Of a DNA stretch of 64,000 nt, positions 2,608 through 60,809 are shown one piece after another. Both the position numbers and the translations under genes were made by a program. The stretch's first letter is position 1. Each line of letters opens with the position of its first letter. A model generated the notes under the pieces. That model saw only the letters and a list, made by a program, of their open reading frames with translations. It had not been told where the DNA came from and made no database searches. This DNA comes from Alphaproteobacteria bacterium (GTDB lineage Bacteria > Pseudomonadota > Alphaproteobacteria > RF32 > CAG-239): positions 14,508-78,507 of the forward strand of contig JAFYXH010000007.1 in assembly GCA_017546315.1 (NCBI GenBank), written 5' to 3'.

Positions 2608-3246
2608 ATGAAAATAAAATATGCGATTTTTGATGTTGGGGGTGTGTGTTATCCGTATTCATTAAAGCCTCTTAATGATTGGGCTAAAGATAATTGCAAG
2701 GATGAGAAAGAATTTCTTAAAAATGGTGGGGTGAGGTGTGTTGATTATAATTCTTATATGCGAGGAGATGTTGACTTTTTTCAATTTTCAAAAGGATTGT
2801 GCGAGCGTGTTGGAATAGATTATTATAAGGGAATTGAAATCACTATTAACGAAAAGTTGCATGAAGGAGTTGGTGAGTTTTATAATGAAACGCTAGAGGT
2901 GATGGAAGAGTTAAAAGAAAAGGGGATTAGAGTTGGGTTGTTGTCTAATGCTCTTTCTAATCTTTCGGACACGGCTGATTTTTTGGTGGTTGATGAACTT
3001 TGTTTTGTATCGTATGAGTTGAGGTGTTTGAAGCCTGAAAAAGAGATTTATGAAAAAATGATAGATAAATTAGGGTGTAAAGCATCTCAGATTATATTTA
3101 TTGATGATAAAGAAAAGAATGTAAAAAGTGCTCAACAGTTAGGAATAAGAGGTGTTGTGTTTAATCGTGAAACATTAAGAAGAGATGTGTTTAATATTAT
3201 CAGAAGTTCTAATTTTCTTGATAGAGGGGATGTTTTTGAAAAATAA
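2608..3246 (+). CDS. HAD-superfamily hydrolase
   Basis: Motif I FDVGGV near the N-terminus, motif II LLSN, motif IV FIDDKEKN; RBS aaggtggtgga before the ATG at 2608 (the ORF-track start at 2560 is probably too early). Confidence 0.65.
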   Translation: MKIKYAIFDVGGVCYPYSLKPLNDWAKDNCKDEKEFLKNGGVRCVDYNSYMRGDVDFFQFSKGLCERVGIDYYKGIEITINEKLHEGVGEFYNETLEVMEELKEKGIRVGLLSNALSNLSDTADFLVVDELCFVSYELRCLKPEKEIYEKMIDKLGCKASQIIFIDDKEKNVKSAQQLGIRGVVFNRETLRRDVFNIIRSSNFLDRGDVFEK

Positions 3247-3263
3247 ATTATATATTAAAAAAA

Positions 3264-3295
3264 AGCCCTCTATATTTTCGCAAACGATGAGGGCT
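3264..3295. other. hairpin element copy A: stem agccctc/gagggct around loop TATATTTTCGCAAACGAT
   Basis: Seen directly; 16 nt after the HAD gene stop; shares the loop core TATTTTCGCAAACG with the element at 8339-8371. Confidence 0.6.
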
Positions 3296-3301
3296 TGAGG
3301 T

Positions 3302-3600
3302 ATATGAGACATCAGTTTTGATGTTGTAGGTACTTTTTTGATACGTCTTAATAATTTTTTTTAAGAGGTATCTATATATATGATTATGTGTCATAAATTT
3401 CTTTTGAAAAAACTACATATACTCACGTACCTGTAGTTTTTTGATGCGCCTTAATAAAAAATTATTTTATTTAAGAGGCATCTATAAAATTATGAGCCAT
3501 AAACTTCTTTTTGGAAAAAACTACATATACTCACGTACCTGTAGTTTTTTGATGCGTCTTAACAAAGGTTAGTTTAAGAGGCATCTTCGATTTAAGGTTA
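3302..3600. repeat. about 2.7 tandem copies of a ~109-bp repeat, each with an inverted repeat and a T-run hairpin
   Basis: The unit 'ctacatatactcacgtacctgtagttttttgatgcg(c/t)cttaa...ttaagaggcatct' recurs starting at 3411 and 3520, with a diverged partial copy from about 3302; each unit has the hairpin aaaaactaca/tgtagttttt and the near-palindrome gatgcgYcttaa...ttaagaggcatc. Confidence 0.75.
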
Positions 3601-3759
3601 AATAATACATCAATCGTGAGTAGTTTATTAGAAATATTTTTTTTGTCAATAATTAATTTATTGGTTTTAAAGTGCAAATTGGGAGTAAAATGGATATATT
3701 CTTGACAGTATTTTGTTTTTTTTATATCGTTTGGAAAGATTTGATGTTGAGGGCAGTTA

Positions 3760-6294
3760 ATGATTTGGTCAGAAAAAGAATTGGCTAGTTTGGGCGAGAT
3801 GAGCGTCAACATGGTGGCTGAACGTTTTATGAAACGTTTAGGAGAGCCTGAAAATCATGAAATATTTGAAAGAGATAATTTTTCGTATTTATGGGGAATG
3901 CTTGGGGTTGCAGGTATTCGTGGAGTTAGTCATAATCTCTTGGGTAAGATTTGGAATACTTTAAAAGAAAATGGTGTGTTAGAGGCCTTTGATAAAGGGG
4001 TTTTAGGTGATTTTAATCTTAAACTTATGAAAAAGTGTCCTGATAGTAGATTAAGAGCTTGGCAGAATTTTGATAATTTTACGACGGATCAAAAGTTTAA
4101 GAAGATGGTTTTGATGCCTGTTGTTGCTATTGATAGAAGATTTGCACAAGAAGTTGACATGCAGGCGTTCAATCCGATGAGAGTGGTTGGTGTTTTAGAG
4201 CGTTATCCGATGAGTGATGCGGTGAAAATGATGCTTAAAGATATGCAAGGACATGGTGTTGCTTGTGGTATTTCTGGTAAAGAAGTGGTTGAGCATTATG
4301 AAAAAGAAAAAGTGTTAAAAAGACTTTGTGATATTATTGCTTTAGGGAAAAGAAAACTCCAAGAAGATGAAAAGGATTTCTTGTTTAGGTTTATTAGTGA
4401 AGCTGTTGAAGATGGTTTTGGGGTTGAGAATATCGGGATTAGGGATGAAGTTTTTGTTGGATTATTAGCAGATGATGAAGATATGGAGGGGAAATCTCCG
4501 ATTGAGGTTTCTCGTTTAAAAGAGCGTAATGCTGAAATTATTGATTTTGCTAAGAGATTTGATGATAAGTTGGGATTTTTTGAGCAGAGTGCTGCAAAGT
4601 TAATCCGTTATAATACTGCGCATACATCTGAGATGATTGAAAGATGTCTTAAGCTTATGAATGGAGATAATCCTAAAGGGGTAGTTTTTGTTTTGGAATT
4701 AGTAAATCTTAAGCAATATAAGTCTGCGGTAAAGATTTTGATTGAGCTTGCAAAGAAAGGGCGAGCAACAGAGGGAGGGTTGTTTATCCATAGGTTAATC
4801 GGCAATGTTAAAGGTGCTGAAAATATGTTAATGAGCATTTTTAAGCTAAATCTAAAAGTGCTTAAAGATAAAGGATATAATGATATAAATAGCGTATTTA
4901 GGGAGAATGTGGCAAGAATTTATGTTGCTGTGGTTAAGGAGTTTATTAGAGTTGGCGCTTTTCGTGATGCGGTAATATTGTTAAATGATTTGGTAGTTTT
5001 TTCTTGGTTAAAGGGAATTGAAGATATTGAAGAAGAAGTGGTTTTGTTAGCTAACTGGCTTTGTGGTAAGAATAGAGGTTTTGAGCAAGTTTTAGATGCT
5101 TGGGCAAGAGAACTTGGGGTTGAGGTTTTTGTTTATGATGGAAAAAGGCGTATTGGTAATGCAAATGCTGTTAGTAAACGAGCGGAAGAACGCTTTATCT
5201 TTTCTGGTAATGATGGTTATAATGTTAATATTGAGAGAATATTAAGCAAGAAGTATGAAGAAGATAAGAAGCGAAAGGTAGAGGTTAGTGCTATAAGCAC
5301 TAAAGATTTGGAAGTTAAGAATGAAGTTTCTACTAGTGCAATGGGTGAAGATGTTTACAAAGAAGAGATTAAGGTAAACGAAAATGATAGGGTAGCACAT
5401 AGTGAGCAGTTGATTGTTTTTGTTGAAGATGGGGTAAATACTGATAATAACTCGTCTGGTTTAGTTGTTGAGGAAGTTGTTAATACTTTAAGTAGTGATA
5501 GTGTTGAAGAAAATGCAAAAACTTTAGATGTTATGAATATTGAGGGGCAAGATTTTGATGCTGAGAAGAACCTTGAAGGTGGAGATAAAGTTATTGAAAC
5601 AATAACGAGCATTACCGAAGAGGCGATAATTAGCACTAAAGAAGTGGGTGATTTAGTAGAAAAAAGTGTTGTTAAGCAAAATAATGTTGAAGCTGAGTTA
5701 GAAAATCAGGTTTCTATAAGTGAGATGAGTGGTATCAATAATGTTGAAAATACAAGCAGTTTTGAGGTGAAAAGTCTTGAAAATAATGATGATGGATTGA
5801 TGGATGTTATTGGTAGTGTTGAGTTGATGGCTGATGATCCTTTAGAAGCAGCTATTAGGCAAGATGAACAAAATATCATAAATAATGAAATTGCACCAAA
5901 TAATGTTGTAGATAGTGAAGTTAGAGTGCAAAGTGCTGAAAGTAAAGAAGTTGTTTTAGAACCAAAAGAAGAGGGTGGTATTGTTGATGAGGGTAAAAAA
6001 ATAGAGTTTGAAAATGTTAAAACAGATATTGAAGAATGGGGTGAAGACGAAGAAAAAACTGAAAGTGTTTCTAGGATTAAGATCCCTAAGTTTTTGAAAA
6101 TAAACTCTAAAGAAATGGAAACGCAATTTAATAAGATAAAAGAAGTTACGGTTTTGGCGGTTAAAAAAGCTGAAGAAAAGGTTGAAGTAATTAAACAAAA
6201 AGTTGAAGATGGTGATATCGAAGAGCTTAGTAGAGAGGCTAGCAATAGGGTTCGGAGTATTCGAGATAAATTTAAGGGAATTATAAAGAAATGA
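3760..6294 (+). CDS. large hypothetical protein (844 aa) with an acidic low-complexity C-terminal half
   Basis: Long ORF; C-terminal ~350 aa rich in E/V/N/D/S with no recognisable catalytic motif; stop at 6294 abuts the ankyrin gene start. Confidence 0.6.
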   Translation: MIWSEKELASLGEMSVNMVAERFMKRLGEPENHEIFERDNFSYLWGMLGVAGIRGVSHNLLGKIWNTLKENGVLEAFDKGVLGDFNLKLMKKCPDSRLRAWQNFDNFTTDQKFKKMVLMPVVAIDRRFAQEVDMQAFNPMRVVGVLERYPMSDAVKMMLKDMQGHGVACGISGKEVVEHYEKEKVLKRLCDIIALGKRKLQEDEKDFLFRFISEAVEDGFGVENIGIRDEVFVGLLADDEDMEGKSPIEVSRLKERNAEIIDFAKRFDDKLGFFEQSAAKLIRYNTAHTSEMIERCLKLMNGDNPKGVVFVLELVNLKQYKSAVKILIELAKKGRATEGGLFIHRLIGNVKGAENMLMSIFKLNLKVLKDKGYNDINSVFRENVARIYVAVVKEFIRVGAFRDAVILLNDLVVFSWLKGIEDIEEEVVLLANWLCGKNRGFEQVLDAWARELGVEVFVYDGKRRIGNANAVSKRAEERFIFSGNDGYNVNIERILSKKYEEDKKRKVEVSAISTKDLEVKNEVSTSAMGEDVYKEEIKVNENDRVAHSEQLIVFVEDGVNTDNNSSGLVVEEVVNTLSSDSVEENAKTLDVMNIEGQDFDAEKNLEGGDKVIETITSITEEAIISTKEVGDLVEKSVVKQNNVEAELENQVSISEMSGINNVENTSSFEVKSLENNDDGLMDVIGSVELMADDPLEAAIRQDEQNIINNEIAPNNVVDSEVRVQSAESKEVVLEPKEEGGIVDEGKKIEFENVKTDIEEWGEDEEKTESVSRIKIPKFLKINSKEMETQFNKIKEVTVLAVKKAEEKVEVIKQKVEDGDIEELSREASNRVRSIRDKFKGIIKK

Positions 6295-6295
6295 T

Positions 6296-8305
6296 ATGGC
6301 GGGTGTAGAGTTTAATGGTGGTAAAAAAAATATGATTAGGGTTAATATTATGAGAAAAGTTAAGTTAGTTTATTTTTGTTTGTTGTTGTGCGCAATGTTG
6401 GGTGCAAATACTTCTAATGTTGAAGCTGGTGATTTCGATTTTGCAGTGGAAGAATGGGTGGATGAAGAAGTAGAATTAGAAGATGATGTTCTTGCTGATG
6501 AAGAATATGAAGAAGTTGTTGAAGAAGTAGAAGAGTTTGAAGATGAGGGAAATAAGCCAGAGTTTATTCCTGAAGGTGAGATTGATGAGGGGGCTCCTGT
6601 TGCTATTTCTCGTAAAACATCAAAAGTGGTTGGTTCTAAAGAGCTTTTTGATAAGTTAAAATATGGGCAGAAAATTCGTATGGATGATGTTGAGGGGTGG
6701 TTGTTTAATACGTCTGATGTTAATGAATGTCTTGAAAATGGTAAGACTATGTTATTACAGATGGTGGCTTATTCCTCGAATATTGAGGCTATTGCATTGT
6801 TGATTGATCATGGAGCAATATTGGCAACTACTTGTCAGCCTAATTATAATGCTTTATTTGTGGCGGCTCAGAACAATAAATCTCCGGCTGTGGTTGATTT
6901 GTTGATTACTAAAGGTGCTGATATTGTGGTGGAGGATTATGAAGGAAATACTGCTCTTAGTGTGGCGGCTGCTTCTAATCCTAGTGGTGGTGTTGTTGAG
7001 ACATTATTGGAATATGGGTTAAAGATTAACAAACCAAACAAAAGAGGACATACTCCTTTGATGTTGGCGGCTTTTAAGAATGATATTAAAGTTGTTAGAG
7101 AATTATTGAAAAATGGGGCGAATGTTAATCTGGAAGATAAGAATGGTAGGACTGCTTTGATGGCGGCTGCTTTGAGAGGTGATGATGATATTATGCAACT
7201 TCTTATTAAGCATGGGGCTAATTTTAAGGTAGTTGATAAAAACAAAATGAGTGTTCTTGATTATTATAATAAAAATAAATACTTAAAAGATGAAGCATAT
7301 ACAGAAAATAAATACGCTTCTATATCTGAAGTTCTTGAATATCGATATGGGTATGTGAGTGATAATCACTATAAATATAATAAAGATTTAAGAGATGCAG
7401 TGTTTGATGATGAAGCTGAAGCAAAAGTTGATGAAGCGATTAAGAGATTGGCAGATATAAATTCTTTGGATGAATATGGGTGTACCCCTTTGATAAACGC
7501 TGCTCGTAATGATAAATCTTTGAAAGTATTTGAATTGTTGGTTGAAGGTGGGGCGGATGTTAATGCTAGTTGTTTAGAGAAAATTACTCCGTTGATGTTT
7601 GTTTCTACACTTGCGCAAGATAAAGAGCGTGCTAAAGTGGCTATTGAAAAGTTGAAATTGTTAAATGATTATAAGTTAGATATTGACTTAGCAGATGAGG
7701 GTGGAAATACTGCTTTGATGTATGCTTTACAATCAGGGGCTAATATCAATTTTGTGGCTAGTTTGCTTGCGTTGAATGCGGATGTTAATGTAGTTAATAA
7801 GCGAGGTGAAACTCCACTTTGGATTGCGGTTAAACGTAATTTGGGTATAAAGATTATTGAGATGTTAATAGAGTTTGGGGCAGATGTTAATGCTAAAGCT
7901 TTAGATGGTGAAACAATTTTGTGGCATATGTTAAAAAATGGTGAGAGTTCTGAGAAAATTGTCTTGTTGCTTGAGAGCGGAATAGATACATCTGTTGTTA
8001 ATCCAACTGGTAAAACTCCTCTTTGGTATCTTCTTCTTAATGGTGGTAGGGCTGATATTTTGAACGCTTTGATTAAGTTTGAGAAAAATCTGAATGAGCC
8101 TAATGCTGTTGGTGATACGCCGTTGTTGTTTGCAGTTAAGAATGATTATCCGGCTGAGATTATTAAATCTATGCTATATTATGGGGCAGACCCTGAAATG
8201 CGTGATGCTAATGGTATGAATACTATGGATATTATGTCTCAAAATCGCTTCTTTGATATGACAATTAAAGAGCAAACAAGGGCAAAAGTTCTTAATCAGT
8301 GGTGA
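6296..8305 (+). CDS. ankyrin-repeat protein with signal peptide and acidic linker
   Basis: Signal peptide MRKVKLVYFCLLLCAMLGANTSNVEA (true start may be the ATG at 6332 or 6350); acidic stretch EEWVDEEVELEDD...EEVEEFEDE; many canonical ANK repeats (G-TPLM-AA-G---V-LLL--GA-VN). Confidence 0.8.
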   Translation: MAGVEFNGGKKNMIRVNIMRKVKLVYFCLLLCAMLGANTSNVEAGDFDFAVEEWVDEEVELEDDVLADEEYEEVVEEVEEFEDEGNKPEFIPEGEIDEGAPVAISRKTSKVVGSKELFDKLKYGQKIRMDDVEGWLFNTSDVNECLENGKTMLLQMVAYSSNIEAIALLIDHGAILATTCQPNYNALFVAAQNNKSPAVVDLLITKGADIVVEDYEGNTALSVAAASNPSGGVVETLLEYGLKINKPNKRGHTPLMLAAFKNDIKVVRELLKNGANVNLEDKNGRTALMAAALRGDDDIMQLLIKHGANFKVVDKNKMSVLDYYNKNKYLKDEAYTENKYASISEVLEYRYGYVSDNHYKYNKDLRDAVFDDEAEAKVDEAIKRLADINSLDEYGCTPLINAARNDKSLKVFELLVEGGADVNASCLEKITPLMFVSTLAQDKERAKVAIEKLKLLNDYKLDIDLADEGGNTALMYALQSGANINFVASLLALNADVNVVNKRGETPLWIAVKRNLGIKIIEMLIEFGADVNAKALDGETILWHMLKNGESSEKIVLLLESGIDTSVVNPTGKTPLWYLLLNGGRADILNALIKFEKNLNEPNAVGDTPLLFAVKNDYPAEIIKSMLYYGADPEMRDANGMNTMDIMSQNRFFDMTIKEQTRAKVLNQW

Positions 8306-8338
8306 TTTGTATATAAATATTTAGATCAAGATATAAGA

Positions 8339-8371
8339 AAAACCTCCATATTTTCGCAAACGTGGAGGTTT
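8339..8371. other. hairpin element copy B: stem aacctcca/tggaggtt around loop TATTTTCGCAAACG
   Basis: Seen directly; 34 nt after the ankyrin gene stop; same loop as copy A at 3264-3295 but a different, compensatory stem. Confidence 0.6.
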
Positions 8372-8575
8372 AGATTTAAAGTTAACAAAGAGAGATTTAT
8401 ATCTTGGGTAAATCGTTTCCTTTTTTTATTTTCACAAATTTCAAAGGGATATTACCGAAGATTCTAGTTTCTTATTACGAACAAAAGTTAACAAAGTACA
8501 GAATAATTTAGTAAGCATAATTGTAGTTTTAGTGGCTACAATTTATAAGAAAAAAATATTTTGTCAAATGTTATT

Positions 8576-10252
8576 TTAGAATAAGCCTGTGATATTGCCG
8601 TTATCGTCAATATCAATATTCTCTGCGGCAGGTACTTTGGGTAGTCCTGGCATTGTATTGATGTTGCCAGATAGGGCTACAATGAAGCCTGCTCCTGCGG
8701 ATAATCTTATCTCGGTTATTGGAAATGTGTAATCAGTTGGTGCGTTAAGCAATTTCGGATCATGCGAGATAGAATTTTGAGTTTTAGCAATGCAAACTGG
8801 AAGTTTTCCATATCCCCAAGAGGTAAATTTTTCTAAATCATCTAGAGCATTTGCTGTAAATGATACATCTTTGGCGCGGTAAATTTCTTTTGCTATGGTT
8901 TCTATCTTTTCTTTTAGTGGAGCAGGGCTTGGATAGAGCATGTGTTGATGTGATGTGTAATTTGAGTTGTTTTGTACTTGCTCTATAATTGTGTTGGCTA
9001 ATTCGATACAGCCTTTTCCACCTTGTTCCCAGCCTTTGGTTATTATGGCTGTTGTTTCTTCGTTTTTACAAAGTGTTTTAAGTAATTCTAGCTCATCTTG
9101 GGTATCTGTTATGAAATTATTGATTGCAATAATTGGGGTGAGGCCGAATTTTTTGATGTTTTCTATATGTGTTTTGAGATTTGAAAAACCTTTTTTGATG
9201 GCATCAAGATTTTCTTGGTGAAGGTCTTGTTTTTCTATTCCGCCGTGCATTTTTAATGCTCTTATGGTTGCAACTAAAACTACGGCTTTGGGGAATATGT
9301 TAGTTTTGCGTCCAAATATATTGAAGAACTTTTCTGCGCCTAAATCAGCACCAAAACCAGCTTCGGTTATAACATAGTTTGCAAGTTTGAGTGCTGTTTT
9401 GGTGGCAATAGCTGAGCTTGTGCCGTGTGCTATGTTGGCAAAAGGGCCACCGTGTATTAAGGCCGGGGTGTGTTCTAACGTTTGAACTAGGTTTGGGAGA
9501 AGAGCGTTTTTTAAGATGGCGGCCATTGCTCCTGTTGCATTAAGATCTTTGGTAAATATTGGTTCATTTTTTGAGTTTTCGCCAATAACTATTTGATTTA
9601 AATTTTCTTTTAATGATTTTAAGTCTTCGCTTAAACATAGGATAGCCATGATTTCTGATGCTACTGATATGTTGAAGCCATCTTTTCTTGGTGTACCATT
9701 TATTGGAGAACCTAAACAAATTTCTATTTCTCTTAATGCTCTATCATTTAGATCTATACAGCGTTTGAAAAATACTTTTTGAATATCTAGAAGATTTCCT
9801 TGTTTGATGTGATTATCTATGAGGGCTGATAGTAAATTATTGGCAGATGTTATGGCGTGAATATCACCGGTAAAGTTTAAGTTTATGTCTTCCATCGGAA
9901 TAACTTGTGAATATCCACCACCGGTTGCGCCTCCTTTTACTCCAAAGCAAGGGCCTAAAGATGGTTCTCTTAGAGATAAGCATACGCTTTTTCCTAATTG
10001 ATTAAAAGCATCTGCAAGTCCTATTGATACAGTTGACTTTCCTTCTCCGGCTGAGGTAGGGGTTAGGGCTGTAATTAGAATTAGATTTCCTTTAGGAGAA
10101 GAATCTTTTAATTCTTGTAGAGTTTTTCTTGAAATTTTAGCCTTATAATGTCCGTAGGGTTCTATATCTTCAGATGTTAGATTAAGTTTTTGGGCTATTT
10201 GATTGATTTTAAACGGAGTTGCCTTGTTTGAAATTTCTATATCTGTTAGCAT
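8576..10252 (-). CDS. fhs: formate--tetrahydrofolate ligase
   Basis: 558 aa; ATP-binding stretch TPTSAGEGKST and overall length typical of FTHFS; RBS aagga before the ATG. Confidence 0.85.
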   Translation of the reverse strand: MLTDIEISNKATPFKINQIAQKLNLTSEDIEPYGHYKAKISRKTLQELKDSSPKGNLILITALTPTSAGEGKSTVSIGLADAFNQLGKSVCLSLREPSLGPCFGVKGGATGGGYSQVIPMEDINLNFTGDIHAITSANNLLSALIDNHIKQGNLLDIQKVFFKRCIDLNDRALREIEICLGSPINGTPRKDGFNISVASEIMAILCLSEDLKSLKENLNQIVIGENSKNEPIFTKDLNATGAMAAILKNALLPNLVQTLEHTPALIHGGPFANIAHGTSSAIATKTALKLANYVITEAGFGADLGAEKFFNIFGRKTNIFPKAVVLVATIRALKMHGGIEKQDLHQENLDAIKKGFSNLKTHIENIKKFGLTPIIAINNFITDTQDELELLKTLCKNEETTAIITKGWEQGGKGCIELANTIIEQVQNNSNYTSHQHMLYPSPAPLKEKIETIAKEIYRAKDVSFTANALDDLEKFTSWGYGKLPVCIAKTQNSISHDPKLLNAPTDYTFPITEIRLSAGAGFIVALSGNINTMPGLPKVPAAENIDIDDNGNITGLF

Positions 10253-16422: not shown

Positions 16423-18855
16423 TTAGTTGATTTTATCTAATGGTTTTACTTTGTGCTCTAATGCAATGTCTATTACTTCACTTGCTTTTTCTACCATTAT
16501 GATGTTTAGACCATCTTTAACGTTTTGAGGAAGTTCTTTTAGGTCTTTCTCGTTTTCTTTGGGGATAATAACTGTTTTTATACCACCACGTAATGCGGAT
16601 AATAATTTTTCTTTTAAGCCACCAATGGGGAGTACTCTTCCTTGGAGGGTGATTTCTCCGGTCATTGCAACATCATTTTTTACAGGTATTTTGGTAAATA
16701 CTGAAACTAGTGTTGTAAACATTGTGATACCAGCGGATGGTCCGTCTTTTGGAGTTGCACCTTCTGGTACGTGAACGTGAATGTCTGTTTTTTCAAAAAC
16801 ATCAGGATTTATTCCGAGTGCTTGAGCATGTGAACGAACAACTGAATATGCAGTGTCAATTGATTCTTTCATCACGTCGCCTAATTTTCCGGTTTGTTTG
16901 ATTAAACCTTTCCCAGGCATGTCTACGGCTTCTATGAATAAGATATCTCCACCAACTTCTGTCCATGCAAGACCGGTTGTAAGACCAATGTGATTTTTCT
17001 CTTCTTTTATACCATAGTGGTATTTGTGAATTCCTAGATAATCTTCTAGTTCTTTTGGAGTTATAACAATGTGTGGGTCTTTTTGATTGTTGATTAGGAT
17101 GTTAGTTGTTGATTTGCGGGCGATTGTGCCTAATTCTCTTTCTAAGTTTCTAACGCCTGATTCTGATGTGTAATATCTAATTACATCACGAATTGCTTCA
17201 TCTGTGATGAAGAGTTCTTCTGGGGTTATTCCGTTTTCGTGGAACACCTTGGGAATTAGGTGACGTTTAGATATTTCTAATTTTTCATCTTCTGTATATC
17301 CGTCGATACGAATAATTTCCATTCTATCTAAAAGTGGACGTGGCATATTTAAGGAGTTAGCTGTGGTTACAAACATCACTTTTGATAAGTCGTAATCTAC
17401 TTCTAGGTAGTGGTCATTAAAGGTTGAATTTTGTTCAGGATCGAGAACTTCTAAAAGGGCTGAACTTGGATCTCCTCTCCAGTCTGAACCTAATTTATCT
17501 ATTTCATCAAGCAAAAATAATGGGTTTGAAGTGCCTGACTTCTTGATGTTTTGAAGTATTTTACCGGGCATTGCGCCAATGTAGGTGCGACGATGTCCTC
17601 TTATTTCTGATTCATCACGCATACCGCCAAGTGATGCTCTTACAAATTTACGGCCTGTGGCACGAGCAATTGAACGTCCGAGTGATGTTTTTCCAACACC
17701 AGGAGCTCCTACTAAACAAAGAATAGGGGATTTTTGATTTTTTGAACGAGCAAGAACAGCAAGGTGTTCAATAATGCGTTCTTTTACTTTTTTTAGGCCA
17801 AAATGATCTTCATCTAGTACTTTAATAGCTTTGTTTATGTCGTTGGTTAATGGTGAATATTTTTTCCAAGGGAGGTCTACAAGCCAGTCTAGGTAGTTTC
17901 TGATTATGGTACTTTCTGCATTCATAGAACCAGAAGAGCGAAGTTTGCGAAGTTCTTGCATTGCCTTGGTGCGGGCTTCTTTTGATAATTTTGCTTGTTT
18001 GATTTTTTTGGTGTATATAGTTATTTCATCTTCATCAGCTCCTCCTGAACTTTGAGTTAGTTCTTTTTGGATGGCACGCATTTGCTCATTGAGATAGTAT
18101 TCTCTTTGGTTTTTTTCCATTTGTTCTTTTACACGTTTTTTGATTTTTTTCTCAAGTTCTTCTTTGGTACGTGTTTCACCAATATATGTTAGAAGATTTT
18201 CTAGGAGTTGAATATAAGAATTAGCTTCAAGGAGTTTTTGTTTGTCTTTTGTGGGGATTTCTAGATTGCCAATAACTGCTGCTATGAAATCTTCTACATT
18301 TGAAGGATTGTAAATTGATGATAGAGTTTGTGGATTTAGGTTATTAAAATCTATGGTTTGATTTTTTAGTTCTTCACTAATTAAAGACATTAAAGCATCT
18401 ATGTGATTTTGTTCGTCTTTTGAAATCTCGGAATTAAATTCTTGAGCAGTAATGAAAGCTGTATAGTATTTACCAAAGGTGTTTAGCTTGGTAAGTTTTA
18501 TACGTTGGATACCTTCTACAGCTAAGTTTAAGGTGCCATCGGGCATCATTATATAGCGTTTTATACGAGCTAGAGTTCCTATTTGATATAGGTCTTTTAA
18601 TTCTGGATTTTCAGTTTTTGCATCTATTTGAGTTAATAATACAATAGGTGTGTTATATTGGTAAGAAGCTTGAGCGGCTTCTAGAGATGTTTTACGACCA
18701 ACAAATAGTGATGCGGTGTTTTTAGGAAATATTACTAAATCACGTAGTGATAGTACTGGGTATTCTACATTTTCTAAAATAATAGTGTCATCTATTGAAT
18801 TTAGAGGAGTATTTAACTCTTGGGTGTCATCTTTAGTATTATCAGTGCTACTCAT
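16423..18855 (-). CDS. lon: ATP-dependent Lon protease
   Basis: 810 aa; Walker A GAPGVGKTS; Lon N-domain, AAA+ module and C-terminal Ser-protease region (PKDGPSAG). Confidence 0.9.
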   Translation of the reverse strand: MSSTDNTKDDTQELNTPLNSIDDTIILENVEYPVLSLRDLVIFPKNTASLFVGRKTSLEAAQASYQYNTPIVLLTQIDAKTENPELKDLYQIGTLARIKRYIMMPDGTLNLAVEGIQRIKLTKLNTFGKYYTAFITAQEFNSEISKDEQNHIDALMSLISEELKNQTIDFNNLNPQTLSSIYNPSNVEDFIAAVIGNLEIPTKDKQKLLEANSYIQLLENLLTYIGETRTKEELEKKIKKRVKEQMEKNQREYYLNEQMRAIQKELTQSSGGADEDEITIYTKKIKQAKLSKEARTKAMQELRKLRSSGSMNAESTIIRNYLDWLVDLPWKKYSPLTNDINKAIKVLDEDHFGLKKVKERIIEHLAVLARSKNQKSPILCLVGAPGVGKTSLGRSIARATGRKFVRASLGGMRDESEIRGHRRTYIGAMPGKILQNIKKSGTSNPLFLLDEIDKLGSDWRGDPSSALLEVLDPEQNSTFNDHYLEVDYDLSKVMFVTTANSLNMPRPLLDRMEIIRIDGYTEDEKLEISKRHLIPKVFHENGITPEELFITDEAIRDVIRYYTSESGVRNLERELGTIARKSTTNILINNQKDPHIVITPKELEDYLGIHKYHYGIKEEKNHIGLTTGLAWTEVGGDILFIEAVDMPGKGLIKQTGKLGDVMKESIDTAYSVVRSHAQALGINPDVFEKTDIHVHVPEGATPKDGPSAGITMFTTLVSVFTKIPVKNDVAMTGEITLQGRVLPIGGLKEKLLSALRGGIKTVIIPKENEKDLKELPQNVKDGLNIIMVEKASEVIDIALEHKVKPLDKIN

Positions 18856-24515: not shown

Positions 24516-24680
24516 TTTTTATTGGTTTATTTAGGCGAAATATAGTTTTAAGCATATATCTTCGAGTATTTGTTTTATTTAATCAAATAGGTTATTGTTT
24601 TTCTTTTTAATTTATTTTTTAAAATAATACTTGCAAAAAGAACAAAAGTAGTATATCTATTTTTGTTGGAGGTATTTGAT

Positions 24681-27500
24681 ATGGCTGAAAGTAAATTTAT
24701 TGAGATAAAAGGTGCTAGAGAGCACAATTTAAAGAATGTAAATATTTCTATTCCCAAAAATAAGTTGACTGTTATTACGGGGTTATCTGGCTCAGGTAAA
24801 TCCTCATTGGCGTTTGATACTATTTATGCAGAAGGGCAAAGAAGATATGTTGAAAGTTTATCTGCGTATGCTAGACAATTTTTGGATTTGATGAAAAAGC
24901 CTGAAGTGGATTCTATTGAAGGGCTTGCGCCAGCTATATCAATTGAGCAAAAAACAACATCTCACAACCCACGTTCTACGGTGGGGACTATAACTGAAAT
25001 TTATGACTACATGAGGCTTTTATGGGCTAGAGCGGGGACGCCATATTCTCCGGCAACAGGGCTTCCTATTGAGGCTCAAACAGTTAGTCAAATTGTAGAT
25101 AAGATTTTAAGTTTGGATGTTGGGACTAAAATTCTATTAGTTGCTCCGATGGTAAGAGGCAGAAAAGGTGAATTTAAGAAAGAACTAGAAGGATTATTGA
25201 AGCAAGGATTTCAGCGAGTAAAGATTGATGGTGAAGTTTATGATCTGGAAGAATTGCCTAGCTTAGAGAAAAATGTTAAGCATGATATTGAGGTGGTTGT
25301 TGATAGACTAATTATCAAAGATGAAGATATGAAGGATAGGCTAGCGCAATCTGTTGAAACAGCGCTTAAGATTAGTGATGGTATTTTATATGTAGATAAT
25401 TTGAGTGATAATAGTCGGTTTACTTGTTCTTCTAAGTATGCGTGTCCGGTTTCTGGGTTTACGATTGAGGAGATTGAGCCTAGATTGTTTTCTTTTAATA
25501 ATCCTCAAGGGGCGTGTCCTCATTGTGATGGAATTGGGGCTAGGCTTTATATGGATGAGAATTTGGTTATTCCAAATGTGTCTAAGAGTATTGCTCAAGG
25601 GGCTATCGCTCCGTGGTATGGATTTAAGTCAGCTTTTTATAAGCAAACATTGATCTCTTTGTGTGATTTTTTAGGGATTTCTCAAGATGTGGCGTGGAAA
25701 GATTTGCCAGAAAAGGCGCGTAAAGTAATTCTATATGGAAGTGGAAATGTTTGTGTGCCGTTATATTATTCTTCTTTTGTTTCTGATAAACCATTTGAAG
25801 GGGTTATTCCTAATATGGAAAGAAGATTTTTGGAGACAGAATCTGCTGCTAGTCGTGAAGAATTATTACATTATCAATCAGCTGCTCCTTGTGGTTTTTG
25901 TAAGGGTAAACGCTTAAAAGATGAAGCACTTGCTGTGAAGGTTTGTGGTAAGGATATTATGGAAGTATCTGATTTATCTATTAAAGAAGCTTTGAAATGG
26001 TTTATGAAAGTAGAAGAGCAGTTAACTCCTCAGAAACAGCAAATTGCACATAAAATATTGAAAGAAATAATTGAGAGGTTGCAGTTTTTGAATAATGTTG
26101 GGTTAGATTATTTGACACTTTCTCGTCAATCAGGTGGATTGTCAGGTGGAGAATCACAACGTATAAGACTAGCTTCGCAGATTGGCTCTGGTTTGACGGG
26201 TGTGTTTTATGTGTTGGATGAACCATCTATTGGGTTACATCAAAGAGATAATGACAGACTGCTTGAGACATTAAATAGGCTTCGAGATATTGGTAATACT
26301 GTGATTGTGGTTGAACATGATGAAGATGCTATCAGAGGAGCGGATTATCTTGTTGATATGGGGCCTGGAGCAGGTGAAAGAGGCGGTTTTGTTGTGGCTG
26401 AAGGAACTGTTGATGAAGTGTTGAAGAACGAAAATTCTTTGACAGCACAATATCTTAATGGTCAAAAAGTAATTGAAGTTCCCTCTAAAAGAAGAAAAGG
26501 AAATGGTAAGTTTTTGGAGTTAAAAGGCGCTAAAACGAATAATCTTAAAGGAGTTGATTTGAAGGTTCCGTTGGGGACATTGACAGTAGTTACTGGTGTT
26601 TCAGGAGGTGGAAAATCTTCTCTTATTTTAGAAACACTTTATAAAGGACTTAACCGAGAGTTAAATAACACTAGAGAGCAAGTTGGTGAATATAAAGAAT
26701 TGCTAGGAGTGGAAAATATTGATAAGGTGATTGATATTGACCAGTCTCCAATTGGAAGGACTCCTAGGTCTAATCCTGCTACTTATACGGGCGTGTTTAC
26801 ATATATTAGAGATTGGTTTGCAGAGCTTCCTTTGGCAAAAGCAAGAGGATATCAAGCGGGTAGATTTTCTTTTAATGTGCAAGGTGGAAGATGTGAAGCT
26901 TGTAAAGGAGATGGAGTTCAAAAAATTGAAATGAACTTTTTGCCTGATGTGTATGTAGAATGTGATGAATGTCATGGCAAAAGGTTTAATCGTGAAACTT
27001 TAGAGGTTGTTTATAAAGGAAAATCGATTGCAGATGTTTTGGATATGACGGTTGATGAAGCAGTTGAATTTTTTGCTAATATTCCAAGTATTAGAACAAG
27101 ATTAGAGTTGTTGCAAAAAGTAGGGCTTGGGTATATTCATTTAGGGCAACCAGCTACAACTTTATCAGGTGGTGAAGCACAGAGAATTAAGCTTTCTAAA
27201 GAATTATCCAAAAGAGCAACAGGAAAGACTGTTTATATTTTGGATGAGCCTACAACGGGACTTCATTTTGAGGATATAAATAAGCTATTGAAAGTTTTAC
27301 AAGCGTTTGTTGATCAGGGAAATACTGTAATTGTGATTGAACATAATTTAGATGTTATAAAAGTTGCTGATCATATTGTTGATATGGGGCCTGAAGGTGG
27401 AGATGGTGGCGGAAAAATTGTGGCGCAAGGCACTCCTGAAGAGATTGTGGCTAAGGCTAAAGGATATACTTATAAATATTTGAAAGATAAGCTTAAGTAA
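24681..27500 (+). CDS. uvrA: excinuclease ABC subunit A
   Basis: Two ABC modules (GLSGSGKSS and GVSGGGKSS Walker A; LSGGESQR and LSGGEAQR signatures), zinc fingers [14 protein letters not shown]; RBS ggagg before the ATG at 24681. Confidence 0.9.
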
Positions 27501-27890
27501 AACATTTAGTGATTTAATGTAATTGGTTTGTGGGGTTAAAAATAAGCCCCTTTACACTAAAAATGCAAAGGGGCGAGATTGGCTTTCTTCTTTGGATGAG
27601 GCTTAAAAGAAACCGGTACTCACGTATGGGTTTCTTAAATAAAATGGCACATTACAAAGAAAAATATAAGCGTCATCTAAATATTAAAGCTAATCTTATA
27701 TGGAATGATTAAAAAGTGTATAAGAATAATTATTTTGTGATTGTAGTATAGAAATAAAAATATTTTTGTCAAGTTTGTTTTCTTTTTTAAGTTTTGAATT
27801 AAAATGATAAAAGAGGTGTTTGATTTTAAATTGTTTTTAACAAATATTTGGTAGTTAAGTTGATAATGATTATTTTTTAGGAGAGCTTAG

Positions 27891-52985: not shown

Positions 52986-53100
52986 AAAAACAATCTCCCC
53001 TATTTTATTGCACGATGCAGTAATGTGGGATTTTTTTTATAAAAACAGAAAATATTAATACTAAATGTTAATTTTTTTGATAAAATAAATTTCAATAAAG

Positions 53101-53320: not shown

Positions 53321-53456
53321 TTTTGTAGAAGCTTCTAGTATTTTGAGAAAACTAATCCCCTATTTTATTGCAAAATGCAATAATGGGGGATTTTTAGTTT
53401 GACAAATGAGTTTTTTGTAGATATGTCTTCAGTCTAATTTTAATTTTTATTATATT

Positions 53457-53801: not shown

Positions 53802-53892
<91 letters not shown>

Positions 53893-57578: not shown

Positions 57579-57659
57579 CTAAAAAGACTGTTTTTTACTT
57601 GAGTTTGTATGTGTTTTATGATATAATTTGTTTAAGTTTAGCTTTTAATGGAGGGGGGA

Positions 57660-60600
57660 ATGAATAATAATAAAAATAATTCCTTTAATAGTGAAAGAAG
57701 TGCACTAATATTTGATTTTTTAAAAGAAGTAAATAGTGCTATACGCAGTGTTAACTCTAATAAAAATAATGATGATATTTACAAATTGTGGGATGTAATC
57801 TACCATGCAGCAGCGTTAAACGATATTAACGGTGATATAAGCAGTTTTGTTTTGGATAAAGTTAAGGAATTGGGTTTATTTAACAAAGAAGAAGAAAAGA
57901 AATTTGAAGAAAAATTAATTCCTTGGGGTGAAAAAAATAATAATAAATATAATGAACTTAGAGAAAGAAGGAATAAAGAAGGCGAAGACAACTTTAATAA
58001 TAATTTGTTCTCCAGAACTCTTTATGATAAATCTTTTTCAAATGTGCAACAAAGTGAAATTTATAGAGCTTCTGTTGATGCTATGTTTGAGCAATATAAA
58101 GGTGAAAAACAGGTAAACCTTACTGATGTTTTTATGGAAAATATTGAAAAAAGCGGTAAATTTAATGATGAAGAAAAGAAAAAGTTGAAAGAATTTTCGT
58201 TACAATCCGAAGAAGCTGTAAAGAATGTGGAAAAACTTTCCGAAGATATGAAAAAACACTTTGATGAAAAAATAAAATTTGAGAACGGGATTAACGGATC
58301 GAAAAATAAAAATAACAATATGAAGCAAAATGATTATTATGATGGGTTTGATAGTGTATTGTTTGACAAGGTGTATTCGGATAAATCTTTTTCCGGCGAG
58401 CAAAGGGGTAAAATTATTCTAGCTTCTATGGATGCTATGTATGCGCAATACAAAGATGGTAAACAAGTAAATCTTACTGAAGTTTTTATGGAAAGTATTG
58501 AAAAAAGCGGTAAATTTAATGATGAAGAAAAGAAAAAACTGAAGGGTTTTTCTTTGGAGGCTGCTGAAAAGGTAAAGGACATAGATAAAGTTCCGGAGCG
58601 ATTGGTAAAGAATTTTGAAAAAGCACTCAAATTTGAAGAAGATTTAAAAAAGATGAATAATATTAACAAAGCTAATGCTTTGAATGGTTCGGAATATAAT
58701 CCCAGTGATGAAATTAAGAAACAAAAAGAAGAGTTGGAGAAATTAAGAGCCGAAGGTGAAGCTAGGGATAAAAAATGGCGTGAAGAGCAAAAAGCAAAAG
58801 ATGAAGCATGGGCGGAAAAAAATAAATCATCAAATCAGGCTATTAACGATATGTCTTTTATAGGACTTGCTATTACGTCTCCTTCATTGGCTAGCATGCC
58901 TCCAATGCAAAGAAATTTTATATATAGTGAAATAAATAGCTTGATGGAACAGTTAAAAGATAATGGGCAGCTTAGCAAAAGAGCTGATGTGTTATTAAAA
59001 GAAAGTATTGTCAATAATAAAGAGTTTAGTCAATATGATAAGGATTTTGCTTTTAAGTGTATTGAGCAATATGACAATTTATTTAAAAATGATGAAAGAC
59101 CGGGGTTTGTTGCTAAAAAAGAAACCCAAGCTAACGCTTCTAAAATTACTGAAACGACAAATCAAAATACTGAGAAAAATGCTTTATCTGAATATATAGA
59201 AAGTGCTCGTAATAAAATGATCAAAGAAAAAGCTCCTACGGGTTTTGCATACATCATTTTGTGTGATATGGATAAAAATCCTAATATCAGTAAAGAAACC
59301 AAAGATATGTTTTTGAATATGGCTATTAAGAGTAGTAAAGAAATTCAAAATCAAGGTTTAAAGATGACAACTGATGAAGGAGTTTATGCATTTGCCGAGG
59401 TCTTAAGTAAAAAGATAAAAGAAAATAAAGAGTTTGGAGAAAAAGGTTTTGAGATAGTTAAAGATATTATGAAAAATGGAGAATCTTTCAACAAAATGTT
59501 ATTTGCTAAAGAAGTGAAAAACATAGTGTTGAACCTTGGTAATGATAATCAGACAAAGACAGATAAAAAAGAAGAAATCAAAAACGATAATAAGCCAATA
59601 GAAGTGAATAAAGAGATAAAAAGACCTGAAACTCCTAAAACAGAAAAAACTGAGATGGAAGCTAAATTAGAGCGTGTAGAAAAATCAGATGAATATAAAA
59701 ATCTTATCAACTCGGGTAATTTTAATGATGCTCAAAAAGATGCTATAAAACTTGATATGGCTAAAAAACTTAAATCTGAATATTTTGAAAATGCTAAAGA
59801 TAAAATAAAAAAAGAAAACGCTTCAATTGGTTTTGCATATATGATACTTGCTAGCATGGATGAGAACCCAAAGATTAGCCAAAAAACTAAAGATGTTTTT
59901 TTGAATATGGCGATTAAATGTAGCAAAGAGATAACAGCCGAGGGATTGAAGATGTCTTCTCCTGAAGGTATGCGAGCAATGGCTGAAAAAATCTCCAAAG
60001 AGATGAAAGAGAATAAGGAGTTTGGTGATGAGGGATTGAAAGCTATTGTAGATACCTTTAACAATGGCAAAGCGATAAATAGTTTATCTTATGCAGATAA
60101 GTTAAAGGATTTTGTTTTTAAGAGATTAAATATTAGTGATGATGCTTCTAAACAAATCAATCAAGAAACAACAGGACTTAAAGAAACAATAGAAAAGAGT
60201 GGAAAACAAACAGAAAGTATCACCCAATTAAAGAATGAAAAAAATGAAATAAAAGAAAAGCCTGTTGAAGAGATTTTGGTTGATAAAATAATCCGAAATG
60301 GGAGTTTTTCTAAAGAAGCACAAAATGAGATATTAAATATTGCGATAGAAATTGAACAAGCAAAACTTAAAAGTGAAACTGATAAAAATAAAACAACATC
60401 AGAAGCTTTTATGGATAAAGTTATCAATAGTGATAAAATTAGTGACAAAGAAAAAGATGAATTGCTTAAAATGTCTATAAAGACAGAAAATAAGGAAATT
60501 GAAAAAACTGAAGGCGGGAAAAGGCTTTATTTTGATGAGAATAAAAAGGAGCGATTTGACCAATTAAAATTAAGTGATAAAGCATTAGAAAGTTTGGAAG

Positions 60601-60809
60601 CTAAAGTTGAAAATGGCAAATTTTCGGTAAAAATACCTGAAAATGATGAGATAAAAAAAGAAGTTATTAGAAGTATTAAAGTGCAAGAAGGCATTGAAAA
60701 TATCAGAAATGCTAAGAGAGATGAAAAAGCAACAGAAAGTAAGCCTACTTTTGACAACAATATGACTACAAATATGGCTAAATTTATGGCATCTCATAAT
60801 CAGCGATAA
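57660..60809 (+). CDS. giant repetitive lysine/glutamate/asparagine-rich hypothetical protein (paralogue A, ~1050 aa) with internal duplications and a shared C-terminal module
   Basis: RBS ggagggggg before the ATG at 57660; two pairs of internal ~60-90-aa direct repeats (KQVNLT(D/E)VFME(N/S)IEKSGKFNDEEKKKLK; GFAY(I/M)IL..MD.NP.IS..TKD.FLNMAIK); the last ~185 aa are similar to the C-terminus of the next gene. Confidence 0.6.
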   Translation: MNNNKNNSFNSERSALIFDFLKEVNSAIRSVNSNKNNDDIYKLWDVIYHAAALNDINGDISSFVLDKVKELGLFNKEEEKKFEEKLIPWGEKNNNKYNELRERRNKEGEDNFNNNLFSRTLYDKSFSNVQQSEIYRASVDAMFEQYKGEKQVNLTDVFMENIEKSGKFNDEEKKKLKEFSLQSEEAVKNVEKLSEDMKKHFDEKIKFENGINGSKNKNNNMKQNDYYDGFDSVLFDKVYSDKSFSGEQRGKIILASMDAMYAQYKDGKQVNLTEVFMESIEKSGKFNDEEKKKLKGFSLEAAEKVKDIDKVPERLVKNFEKALKFEEDLKKMNNINKANALNGSEYNPSDEIKKQKEELEKLRAEGEARDKKWREEQKAKDEAWAEKNKSSNQAINDMSFIGLAITSPSLASMPPMQRNFIYSEINSLMEQLKDNGQLSKRADVLLKESIVNNKEFSQYDKDFAFKCIEQYDNLFKNDERPGFVAKKETQANASKITETTNQNTEKNALSEYIESARNKMIKEKAPTGFAYIILCDMDKNPNISKETKDMFLNMAIKSSKEIQNQGLKMTTDEGVYAFAEVLSKKIKENKEFGEKGFEIVKDIMKNGESFNKMLFAKEVKNIVLNLGNDNQTKTDKKEEIKNDNKPIEVNKEIKRPETPKTEKTEMEAKLERVEKSDEYKNLINSGNFNDAQKDAIKLDMAKKLKSEYFENAKDKIKKENASIGFAYMILASMDENPKISQKTKDVFLNMAIKCSKEITAEGLKMSSPEGMRAMAEKISKEMKENKEFGDEGLKAIVDTFNNGKAINSLSYADKLKDFVFKRLNISDDASKQINQETTGLKETIEKSGKQTESITQLKNEKNEIKEKPVEEILVDKIIRNGSFSKEAQNEILNIAIEIEQAKLKSETDKNKTTSEAFMDKVINSDKISDKEKDELLKMSIKTENKEIEKTEGGKRLYFDENKKERFDQLKLSDKALESLEAKVENGKFSVKIPENDEIKKEVIRSIKVQEGIENIRNAKRDEKATESKPTFDNNMTTNMAKFMASHNQR

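Follow-up and report, generated by a model that had tools for sequence, protein, structure and literature searches.

Why do two hairpins in the genome of an uncultured gut alphaproteobacterium carry the same tip, and on which strand is that tip read? The window analysed here, the whole stretch of 64,000 nucleotides (64 kb) taken from contig JAFYXH010000007.1 of assembly GCA_017546315.1, contains one hairpin beside a HAD gene (copy A) and another beside an ankyrin gene (copy B), which a preliminary description made from the letters alone had presented as unrelated stems around one 14-nt loop. Copies A and B, together with two variant hairpins at 3402-3442 and 3510-3550, are in our assessment probably Rho-independent terminators of small, conserved and mostly non-coding units on the minus strand. 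Their tip, judged by its sequence, is a recurrent and constrained module shared with terminators of Bacteroides phages and with the central hairpin of the Bacteroides-1 RNA motif.

Hairpins A and B and their strand

Copy A (3263-3296) consists of the arms AAGCCCTC and GAGGGCTT around 18 nt (TATATTTTCGCAAACGAT), and copy B (8340-8371) of the arms AAACCTCCA and TGGAGGTTT around the 14-mer TATTTTCGCAAACG, which occurs exactly twice in the window, once in each copy. The existence of both hairpins and of their common loop sequence is thus as first described, the longest exact identity between them being the 15 nt ATATTTTCGCAAACG; their positions also hold, apart from a shift of 1-2 nt in the coordinates given for copy B. 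The stems had been called entirely different, but both contain CCTC...GAGG, and when the two copies are aligned on the loop without gaps they agree at 34 of 46 positions. What distinguishes them is two compensated pairs at the outer end (G-C to A-T and C-G to A-T) and two additional inner pairs in copy B.

The exact 15-mer repeat is unremarkable in itself, because about 16 repeated 15-mers are expected from a Markov simulation of the window. Its placement at the apex of perfect hairpins of 8-9 bp is far beyond chance: only about 17 hairpins with a stem of at least 8 bp and a loop of 13-18 nt exist in the window, and by our estimate about 0.4% of the window lies inside such loops, which gives a probability of about 5e-6 for both copies falling there. 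The resemblance of A and B is real and non-random, and the conservation in relatives and the phage controls described below add support.

Read on the minus strand, both copies have a U-run. The sequence of copy A is AAGCCCUC-AU-CGUUUGCGAAAAUA-UA-GAGGGCUU, followed by six further U (U8 if the two in the stem are counted), and copy B reads AAACCUCCA-CGUUUGCGAAAAUA-UGGAGGUUU-UUCUUAU, with UUUUUCUU as its U-run. No U-run was found 3' of A or B on the plus strand, so that the claimed lack of a proper U-tract applies to that strand only. The loop is not expected to be open either: the minus-strand RNA of copy A is predicted to fold into an outer stem, a 3x3 internal loop and a 4-bp helix (one G·U and three U-A pairs) capped by a GCGA tetraloop, with a minimum free energy of -14.0 kcal/mol (-14.4 kcal/mol for copy B). 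Together with a C·A mismatch at its base this gives the apical module CGUUU-GCGA-AAAUA in both copies. On the plus strand the hairpins are retained (-13.1 and -13.5 kcal/mol for A and B respectively), but with a C·A mismatch in place of the G·U wobble and with UCGC, which is not a GNRA loop, as the tetraloop. The wobble, the GNRA tetraloop and the U-tract all lie on the minus strand, contrary to the original view of a plus-strand element that was less likely to be a generic terminator; the stable, C/G-containing outer stems of 8-11 bp with the U-run directly 3' of them are those expected of an intrinsic terminator. The features are:

3255-3296, minus strand: copy A, terminator-like hairpin with arms AAGCCCUC (3296-3289) and GAGGGCUU (3270-3263) and a U-run
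3273-3286, minus strand: apical module of copy A (C·A mismatch, G·U, three U-A, GNRA)
8333-8371, minus strand: copy B, terminator-like hairpin with arms AAACCUCCA and UGGAGGUUU, then UUCUUAU
8349-8362, minus strand: apical module of copy B, identical in sequence to that of copy A

Written as the pattern N-G-U-n-n-G-N-R-A-n'-n'-A-U-A, with n and n' complementary, the tip has five matches in the window, all on the minus strand and four of them inside hairpins. A covariance model (R1) was built from 14 hairpins, its seeds including copy B and the 3510-3548 hairpin and excluding copy A. Its four strong matches in the window (33-49 bits) are confined to the minus strand and to 3.2-8.4 kb; beyond these four nothing in the 64 kb exceeded 18 bits, and a further 13 kb of the same scaffold contained no match. 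Copy A, being outside the training set, scored 33.4 bits (E 5e-7), and copy B, a training sequence, 48.9 bits (E 8e-12). The high scores of copy B, of the 3510 hairpin and of its duplicate are expected, because they are seeds or identical to a seed, the 3402 hairpin matching the seed taken from the 3510-3548 copy over hairpin and module alike. In both of these variant hairpins the minus-strand stem runs directly into U6. The further matches are:

3402-3442, minus strand: second-type module hairpin, AAAAAACUACA - GGUAC[GUGA]GUAUA - UGUAGUUUUUU; R1 41.3 bits
3510-3550, minus strand: tandem duplicate of the second-type hairpin, a seed sequence with an orthologue in the related genome L302; R1 40.0 bits
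27599-27640, strand unassigned: doubtful relative, AAGAAACC / 14 nt / GGTTTCTT; R1 marginal, 16.6 bits

The doubtful relative has, on the plus strand, the tip GGUAC[UCAC]GUAUG, with the G·U and no GNRA loop, and its predicted fold is -15.3 kcal/mol on the plus strand vs -10.9 kcal/mol on the minus strand. It is the second of two hairpins that follow the gene at 24663-27500, at 27546-27574 and 27606-27637; the first has a T-run on the minus strand only, and the second has the module-like tip with a complementary tetraloop and is more stable on the plus strand. Plain loops rich in A/T top the other terminator-like hairpins of the window.

The tip in relatives and in phages

The window, part of a 115-kb metagenome scaffold, belongs to a low-GC gut alphaproteobacterium related to CAG-267: its glycyl-tRNA synthetase (GlyRS) shares 87% identity with proteins that carry the names 'Acetobacter sp. 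CAG:267' and 'Alphaproteobacteria bacterium'. The gene order HAD / 844-aa / ankyrin / FTHFS is kept in related gut alphaproteobacterial genomes, and the two-gene block (844-aa and ankyrin) is conserved in place with both hairpins in L302 and L303. Orthologous hairpins, all on the minus strand, read as follows:

Copy A, window: GCCCUC-AU-CGUUUGCGAAAAUA-UA-GAGGGC
Copy A, L302: GCUCCC-U-CGUUUGUGAAAAAUA-UA-GGGAGC
Copy A, L303: GCCCC-GAAA-GUUUGUGAAAAU-GUAUA-GGGGC
Copy A, L306: AUCUCCC-GA-UGUUUGUGAAAAUG-GUA-GGGAGAU
Second type, L302: tip GGUACGUGAGUAUA unchanged, one compensated stem pair
Copy B, L303: G·U replaced by G-C
Copy B, L302: stem the same, tip diverged

All four copy A hairpins abut the stop codon of the HAD gene and are followed by U-runs. 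Their tip, GUUU-GNGA-AAAU, is constant in the four genomes, and the stems vary with compensation, so that the proposal of a structured element with a conserved apex and covarying stems is supported by the three relatives.

We also scanned viral contigs. The bare 14-mer gave mostly chance matches there, although several had complementary arms, and the scan was therefore filtered for a 14-mer with a T-run 4-10 nt downstream. A match was termed stem-flanked where complementary arms bracket the 14-mer, and four control 14-mers that keep the hairpin potential (three single-base variants and one arm swap) were treated in the same way:

Real tip, CGTTTGCGAAAATA: 6 matches, 6/6 stem-flanked
Second-type tip, GGTACGTGAGTATA: 2 matches, 2/2 stem-flanked
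GAGA-loop version (loop N changed): 28 matches, 3 independent loci stem-flanked
Control, G·U to G-C: 2 matches, 0 stem-flanked
Control, G·U to A-U: 12 matches, 0 stem-flanked
Control, C·A to C-G: 4 matches, 0 stem-flanked
Control, UUU/AAA swapped to AAA/UUU: 8 matches, 0 stem-flanked

The contrast between the real tip (6/6) and the controls (0/26) is significant by Fisher's test (p about 1e-6, or about 1e-5 with homologous contigs counted once). The arms of the six real-tip matches are perfect and mutually unrelated (CAAGTGC, CCGCC, AGAGTGC, CGTCAGCC, GGGTGTGTC), and the notion of a conserved loop on a free stem is thus upheld in viral contigs, where the same 14-mer tops hairpins with unrelated stems. 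Nothing besides the hairpin was found in common in the sequence around independent instances of the tip. Between two related phages (L087 and L125) the module differs by CC/GG vs UU/AA and by GUGA vs GCGA, and the G, U, A, U and A of the pattern are fixed.

The replication genes of the tip-bearing contigs are closest to those of Bacteroides phages. Their hairpins are co-oriented with the upstream genes, and every instance has the GNRA/G·U orientation with the T-run 3'. The isolated Bacteroides phage B40-8 (L317) has tandem module-type terminators at 16564-16602 and 16650-16688, directly after the lysis genes, the first of which carries the exact Bacteroides-1 tip GGUAUGCGAAUAUA; BS-TP3 (L265), also an isolated Bacteroides phage, has tandem module-type terminators at 17790-17829 and 18281-18320, again directly after the lysis genes. 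One of the three GAGA-loop loci, with the hairpin CCTGTCCTT-CGTTTGAGAAAATA-GGGGGCAGG-T7, recurs with hardly any change in at least 20 large contigs of viruses, among them L266, L269-L272 and L274, which are IMG/VR contigs of 80-158 kb.

The module is rare overall and clustered where present. When genome contigs were scanned for the 14-mer with a T-run, 117 of the 119 matches listed were stemless chance matches, and the only real instances among them (L153 and L175, about 96% alike) represent one Parabacteroides MAG (metagenome-assembled genome) locus. R1 gave no new instance on 0.7 Mb of unrelated genomes, all sites there being chance ones of at most 30 bits. A motif confined to A and B, which the preliminary description would have taken as a refutation, is not in spirit what was found, given the two variant copies, the orthologues in relatives and the phage instances.

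Known families and competing explanations

Terminator loops are usually regarded as free sequence. The window hairpins resemble intrinsic terminators in their C/G-rich stem, direct U-run, probable position at the end of a unit and, in some copies, a 5' A-run of the kind that bidirectional terminators have, and differ from them in that the apex is a sequence-constrained mini-helix (N·A, G·U, GNRA) set on unrelated stems. Searches of the full-text literature for the 14-mers recovered only an unrelated primer, and no description of the tip was found in the literature on Bacteroides terminators.

At gathering thresholds Rfam identified only a tRNA in the window, and at permissive thresholds sub-threshold noise and one lead, Bacteroides-1 (RF01694), with 21.2 bits at 3503-3565 and 19.3 bits at 3391-3451, below its gathering threshold of 43. 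In a scan of 3000-9000 this family had no match for copy A and none was reported for copy B. Its consensus central hairpin (Uuaug-u-gUAU-GUGA-AUAu-a-cauaA, with seeds such as GGUAUGCGAAUAUA) has a tip like ours, N-G-U-A-U-G(C/U)GA-A-U-A-U-R, and the window hairpins do possess the G·U, the U-A, the two pairs and the GYGA loop of that hairpin. The conserved 5' segment AUGCAAAUC.GCCUGA of the family shows scattered matches only, however, and its second 3' hairpin is deleted in the alignment; the family is also one of Bacteroides, whereas the window hairpins are alphaproteobacterial. We would accordingly not count them as members of Bacteroides-1, although the module that they have in common with it looks like its core. 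The sequences of the family are flanked by GUGA-capped terminators, and the authors who reported it give it no function (Weinberg et al., 2010; PMC2864571).

Other systems resemble the module in part. The boxB hairpin of phage lambda, bound by N, is a short hairpin read by a transcription elongation factor. The UNCG hairpin bound by LoaP is likewise read by an elongation factor (PMC12691694). In both, as here, the conserved part is a tetraloop-type apex and not the stem; these hairpins lie in 5' leaders and recruit antiterminators, however, whereas our module tops the terminator itself, and none of the genes nearby encodes a partner protein for it, nor is one known. The REP/BIME elements, like the inverted repeats of uptake sequences, are extragenic palindromes at gene 3' ends with a conserved stem and hundreds of copies per genome. 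The window hairpins are similar to REP/BIME as repeated extragenic palindromes at gene 3' ends that could serve as terminators or stabilisers, but it is their tip that is conserved, the stems differ, and there are only four copies in about 78 kb, unlike REP- or MITE-like families. The mini-ykkC (guanidine-II) motif, often with tandem hairpins, variable stems and a conserved apex, differs by its ACGR loop, its location in the 5' untranslated region (UTR) of transporter genes and its lack of a U-run.

Several points weigh against reading the four hairpins as minus-strand terminators with a constrained tip. The strand and the 3' ends are deduced from sequence alone, as are transcription, termination and any role of the tip. 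The copies lie just 3' of plus-strand genes (A and B at 16 and 34 nt from the stop codons of the HAD and ankyrin genes respectively) for which no other terminator hairpin was found, and some bidirectional function may exist. Promoter-like hexamers are not enriched in the window (44 found vs 47.6 expected in shuffled sequence), and the covariation statistics of R1 are biased, its seeds having been picked for possessing stems. Common ancestry of the phage instances is possible and would inflate the contrast with the controls. Finally, of the orthologues of copy B, that of L303 lacks the G·U and that of L302 has a diverged tip. Because they vary in this way, the tip must be less tightly constrained in this lineage than one would conclude from the phage controls; the constraint is real but not absolute.

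That last point also favours the likeliest alternative, in which the tip has no special function: A and B would be paralogous terminators that go back to an old duplication in this region, and their resemblance to other hairpins would reflect a general preference for AU-rich, GNRA-capped tops. The abundance of chance 15-mer repeats in the window, the confinement of all four copies to 5 kb, the fact that the A and B tips of the relatives are alike and not identical, and the GUGA-capped terminators beside Bacteroides-1 sequences would all fit. Against this, the controls that would form the better helix are never found in hairpins (0/26 vs 8/8 for the two tips), the copy A tip is constant in four genomes despite diverged stems and flanks, and ordinary terminators of this organism and its relatives carry loops of plain A/T; we consider a tip without function unlikely.

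A plus-strand element in the mRNAs of the HAD and 844-aa/ankyrin genes, that is, a processing, stability or protein-recognition site at the 3' end that presents the loop UAUUUUCGCAAACG, appears very unlikely to us. The short distance from the plus-strand stops, the missing terminators of these genes and the fold that persists on that strand are what it has in its favour; the C·A mismatch, the UCGC loop and the absent U-run on the plus strand, the uniform GNRA/G·U orientation of the phage hairpins with their 3' T-run and upstream genes, and the plain terminator that follows FTHFS in relatives with a short intergenic space, where the long region ending in copy B is missing, all speak for the minus strand. 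Nor was any evidence found for an attenuator of the plus-strand genes, the module strand being antisense to the gene at 3760; the plus-strand TTGACA box (3703) lies downstream of the hairpins there, and no Rfam family of riboswitch or 5' attenuator type matched. A site acting as DNA (an att or other recombination site, as had been proposed, a cassette boundary, a protein-binding palindrome or a single-strand origin) is scarcely credible: the copies are in direct orientation either side of the 844-aa/ankyrin pair and the gene content 3' of FTHFS differs among relatives, but each copy has its own self-complementary arms, so that crossover in the core would yield hybrid, non-complementary ones, no integrase or transposase is among the neighbouring genes, attC cores (RYYYAAC/GTTRRRY) are absent on direct reading of the sequence, block and hairpins stay in place in L302 and L303, and the strand asymmetry (G·U, GNRA) and inner-pair covariation fit RNA and not duplex DNA.

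If the hairpins are minus-strand terminators, the apical mini-hairpin (G·U, U-A, two pairs, GNRA) would fold first as the strand is transcribed, the C/G-rich outer stem would next zip up to the U-run, and the transcript would be released with a 3' hairpin that should also protect it. The module probably does more than aid folding. It could be a contact site for a factor, for which boxB/N and the LoaP hairpin offer precedents; it could be a deliberate break of the DNA palindrome, cheap in RNA where G·U pairs at that place; or it could enforce strand-specific folding. More tentatively, and with low confidence, we suggest that the 14-nt tip may be a portable RNA recognition module common to gut Alphaproteobacteria, Bacteroides and Bacteroides phages, and that a conserved factor of the host or the phage may read it and so determine how efficiently transcription terminates or how stable the 3' end of the RNA is. 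Such a module would amount to the bacterial equivalent of a 3' stem-loop binding system and may have passed from one phylum to another in the gut.

What recurs here is a defined tip on unrelated stems, in a gut alphaproteobacterium, in phages B40-8 and BS-TP3 and in an orphan Rfam motif. Should the tip be read by a factor or tune termination, it would give a function to the Bacteroides-1 core, mark strong or regulated terminators in gut microbes and phages, and provide a compact part for Bacteroides engineering; should it be a folding aid only, the result would be a modest refinement of terminator anatomy.

Units and genes around the hairpins

The HAD gene and the 844-aa/ankyrin operon are antisense to both hairpins on the module strand. 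The FTHFS gene (8576-10252) is on the minus strand, and copy B is co-oriented with it, 204 nt 3' of its stop codon. Two minus-strand regions lead into the hairpins:

3297-3660, minus strand: three tandem units resembling small-RNA genes, each with an imperfect 12-bp hairpin and a module terminator
8372-8575, minus strand: conserved non-coding region from the FTHFS stop to copy B, with a promoter-like site and an internal hairpin

The tandem units form a repeat of about 108 bp, with the hairpin GAUGCCUCUUAA..UUAAGRCGCAUC (GATGCCTCTTAA..TTAAGRCGCATC) at 3551-3585, 3443-3482 and 3340-3372, and are preceded by promoter-like hexamers at 3649-3622, 3517-3489 and 3410-3383 respectively. The third unit ends in copy A, and the unit that this hairpin would close diverges from the 844-aa gene and converges on the HAD gene. 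Each of the four genomes with a hairpin of the copy A type (the window, L302, L303 and L306) has a TTGACA box upstream on the minus strand, facing away from the promoter of the 844-aa gene, and one tandem unit is conserved in L302. In the more distant relative L306 (9545-10000, minus strand) an open reading frame of about 50 aa, rich in lysine, lies between HAD and the 844-aa homologue, replaces the non-coding units and ends in a hairpin of the copy A type.

Copy B appears to end the region of about 200 nt after FTHFS, which could be a long 3' UTR or else a small RNA transcribed from a promoter of its own. A promoter-like site of near-consensus sequence (TTGACA-16-TATAAA, 8567-8540) directly follows the FTHFS stop, and the internal hairpin (8419-8447) reads CCUUU..AUUU[GUGA]AAAU..AAAGG. 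No Rfam match was obtained for 8372-8575, which we regard as a candidate for a 3' UTR-derived small RNA. Across the window, L302 and L303 the B region of about 250 nt has 71% column identity, and the 8419-8447 hairpin is kept in relatives with its AUUU[GUGA]AAAU tip, the outer stem covarying (CCUUU/AAAGG, GUCC/GGAC and CCUU/AAGG). Two conserved and unannotated small units, apparently non-coding, seem to flank the ankyrin gene pair in this uncultured gut lineage.

Other candidates for the region were rejected. An origin of the window in Bacteroidota, prompted by the weak Rfam matches and by DUF4890, was ruled out by the 87% identity of GlyRS to alphaproteobacterial proteins. A foreign island was discarded in view of the 844-aa protein, which has no phage match and whose homologues are all in related alphaproteobacterial MAGs, and of the gene order, which is kept. 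Type III toxin-antitoxin repeats, a type I toxin (25-aa reading frame at 8533), a CRP-like TGTGA site, an ops-like element (PMC11685472) and a sarcin-ricin-like loop were each dropped, their defining features being missing or not conserved. The conserved A/U would also agree with a -10-like TAnnnT of the opposite strand, which does not account for the conserved G, the G/R of the GNRA loop or the inner covariation.

Some further features of the scaffold were recorded. Throughout the window, where GC is 29-36%, the coding strands have a very strong excess of G over C, the GC skew reaching 0.5 in 4-kb windows. Beyond the window start, on the same scaffold (L298, 11718-16091), a second small ankyrin gene lies with a zeta-toxin gene and an Eco57I-like gene, a block that is conserved in L302. 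A 40-nt hairpin-forming repeat (52996-53035 and 53356-53395, 360 nt apart and 90% identical) stands upstream of the tRNA at 53802-53889. The genes at 57648-60809 and 60887-63841 are large neighbouring paralogues; their products, of about 1050 and 984 aa, have no recorded Pfam domain, and their repeats are about 75% identical at a spacing of 3032 nt.

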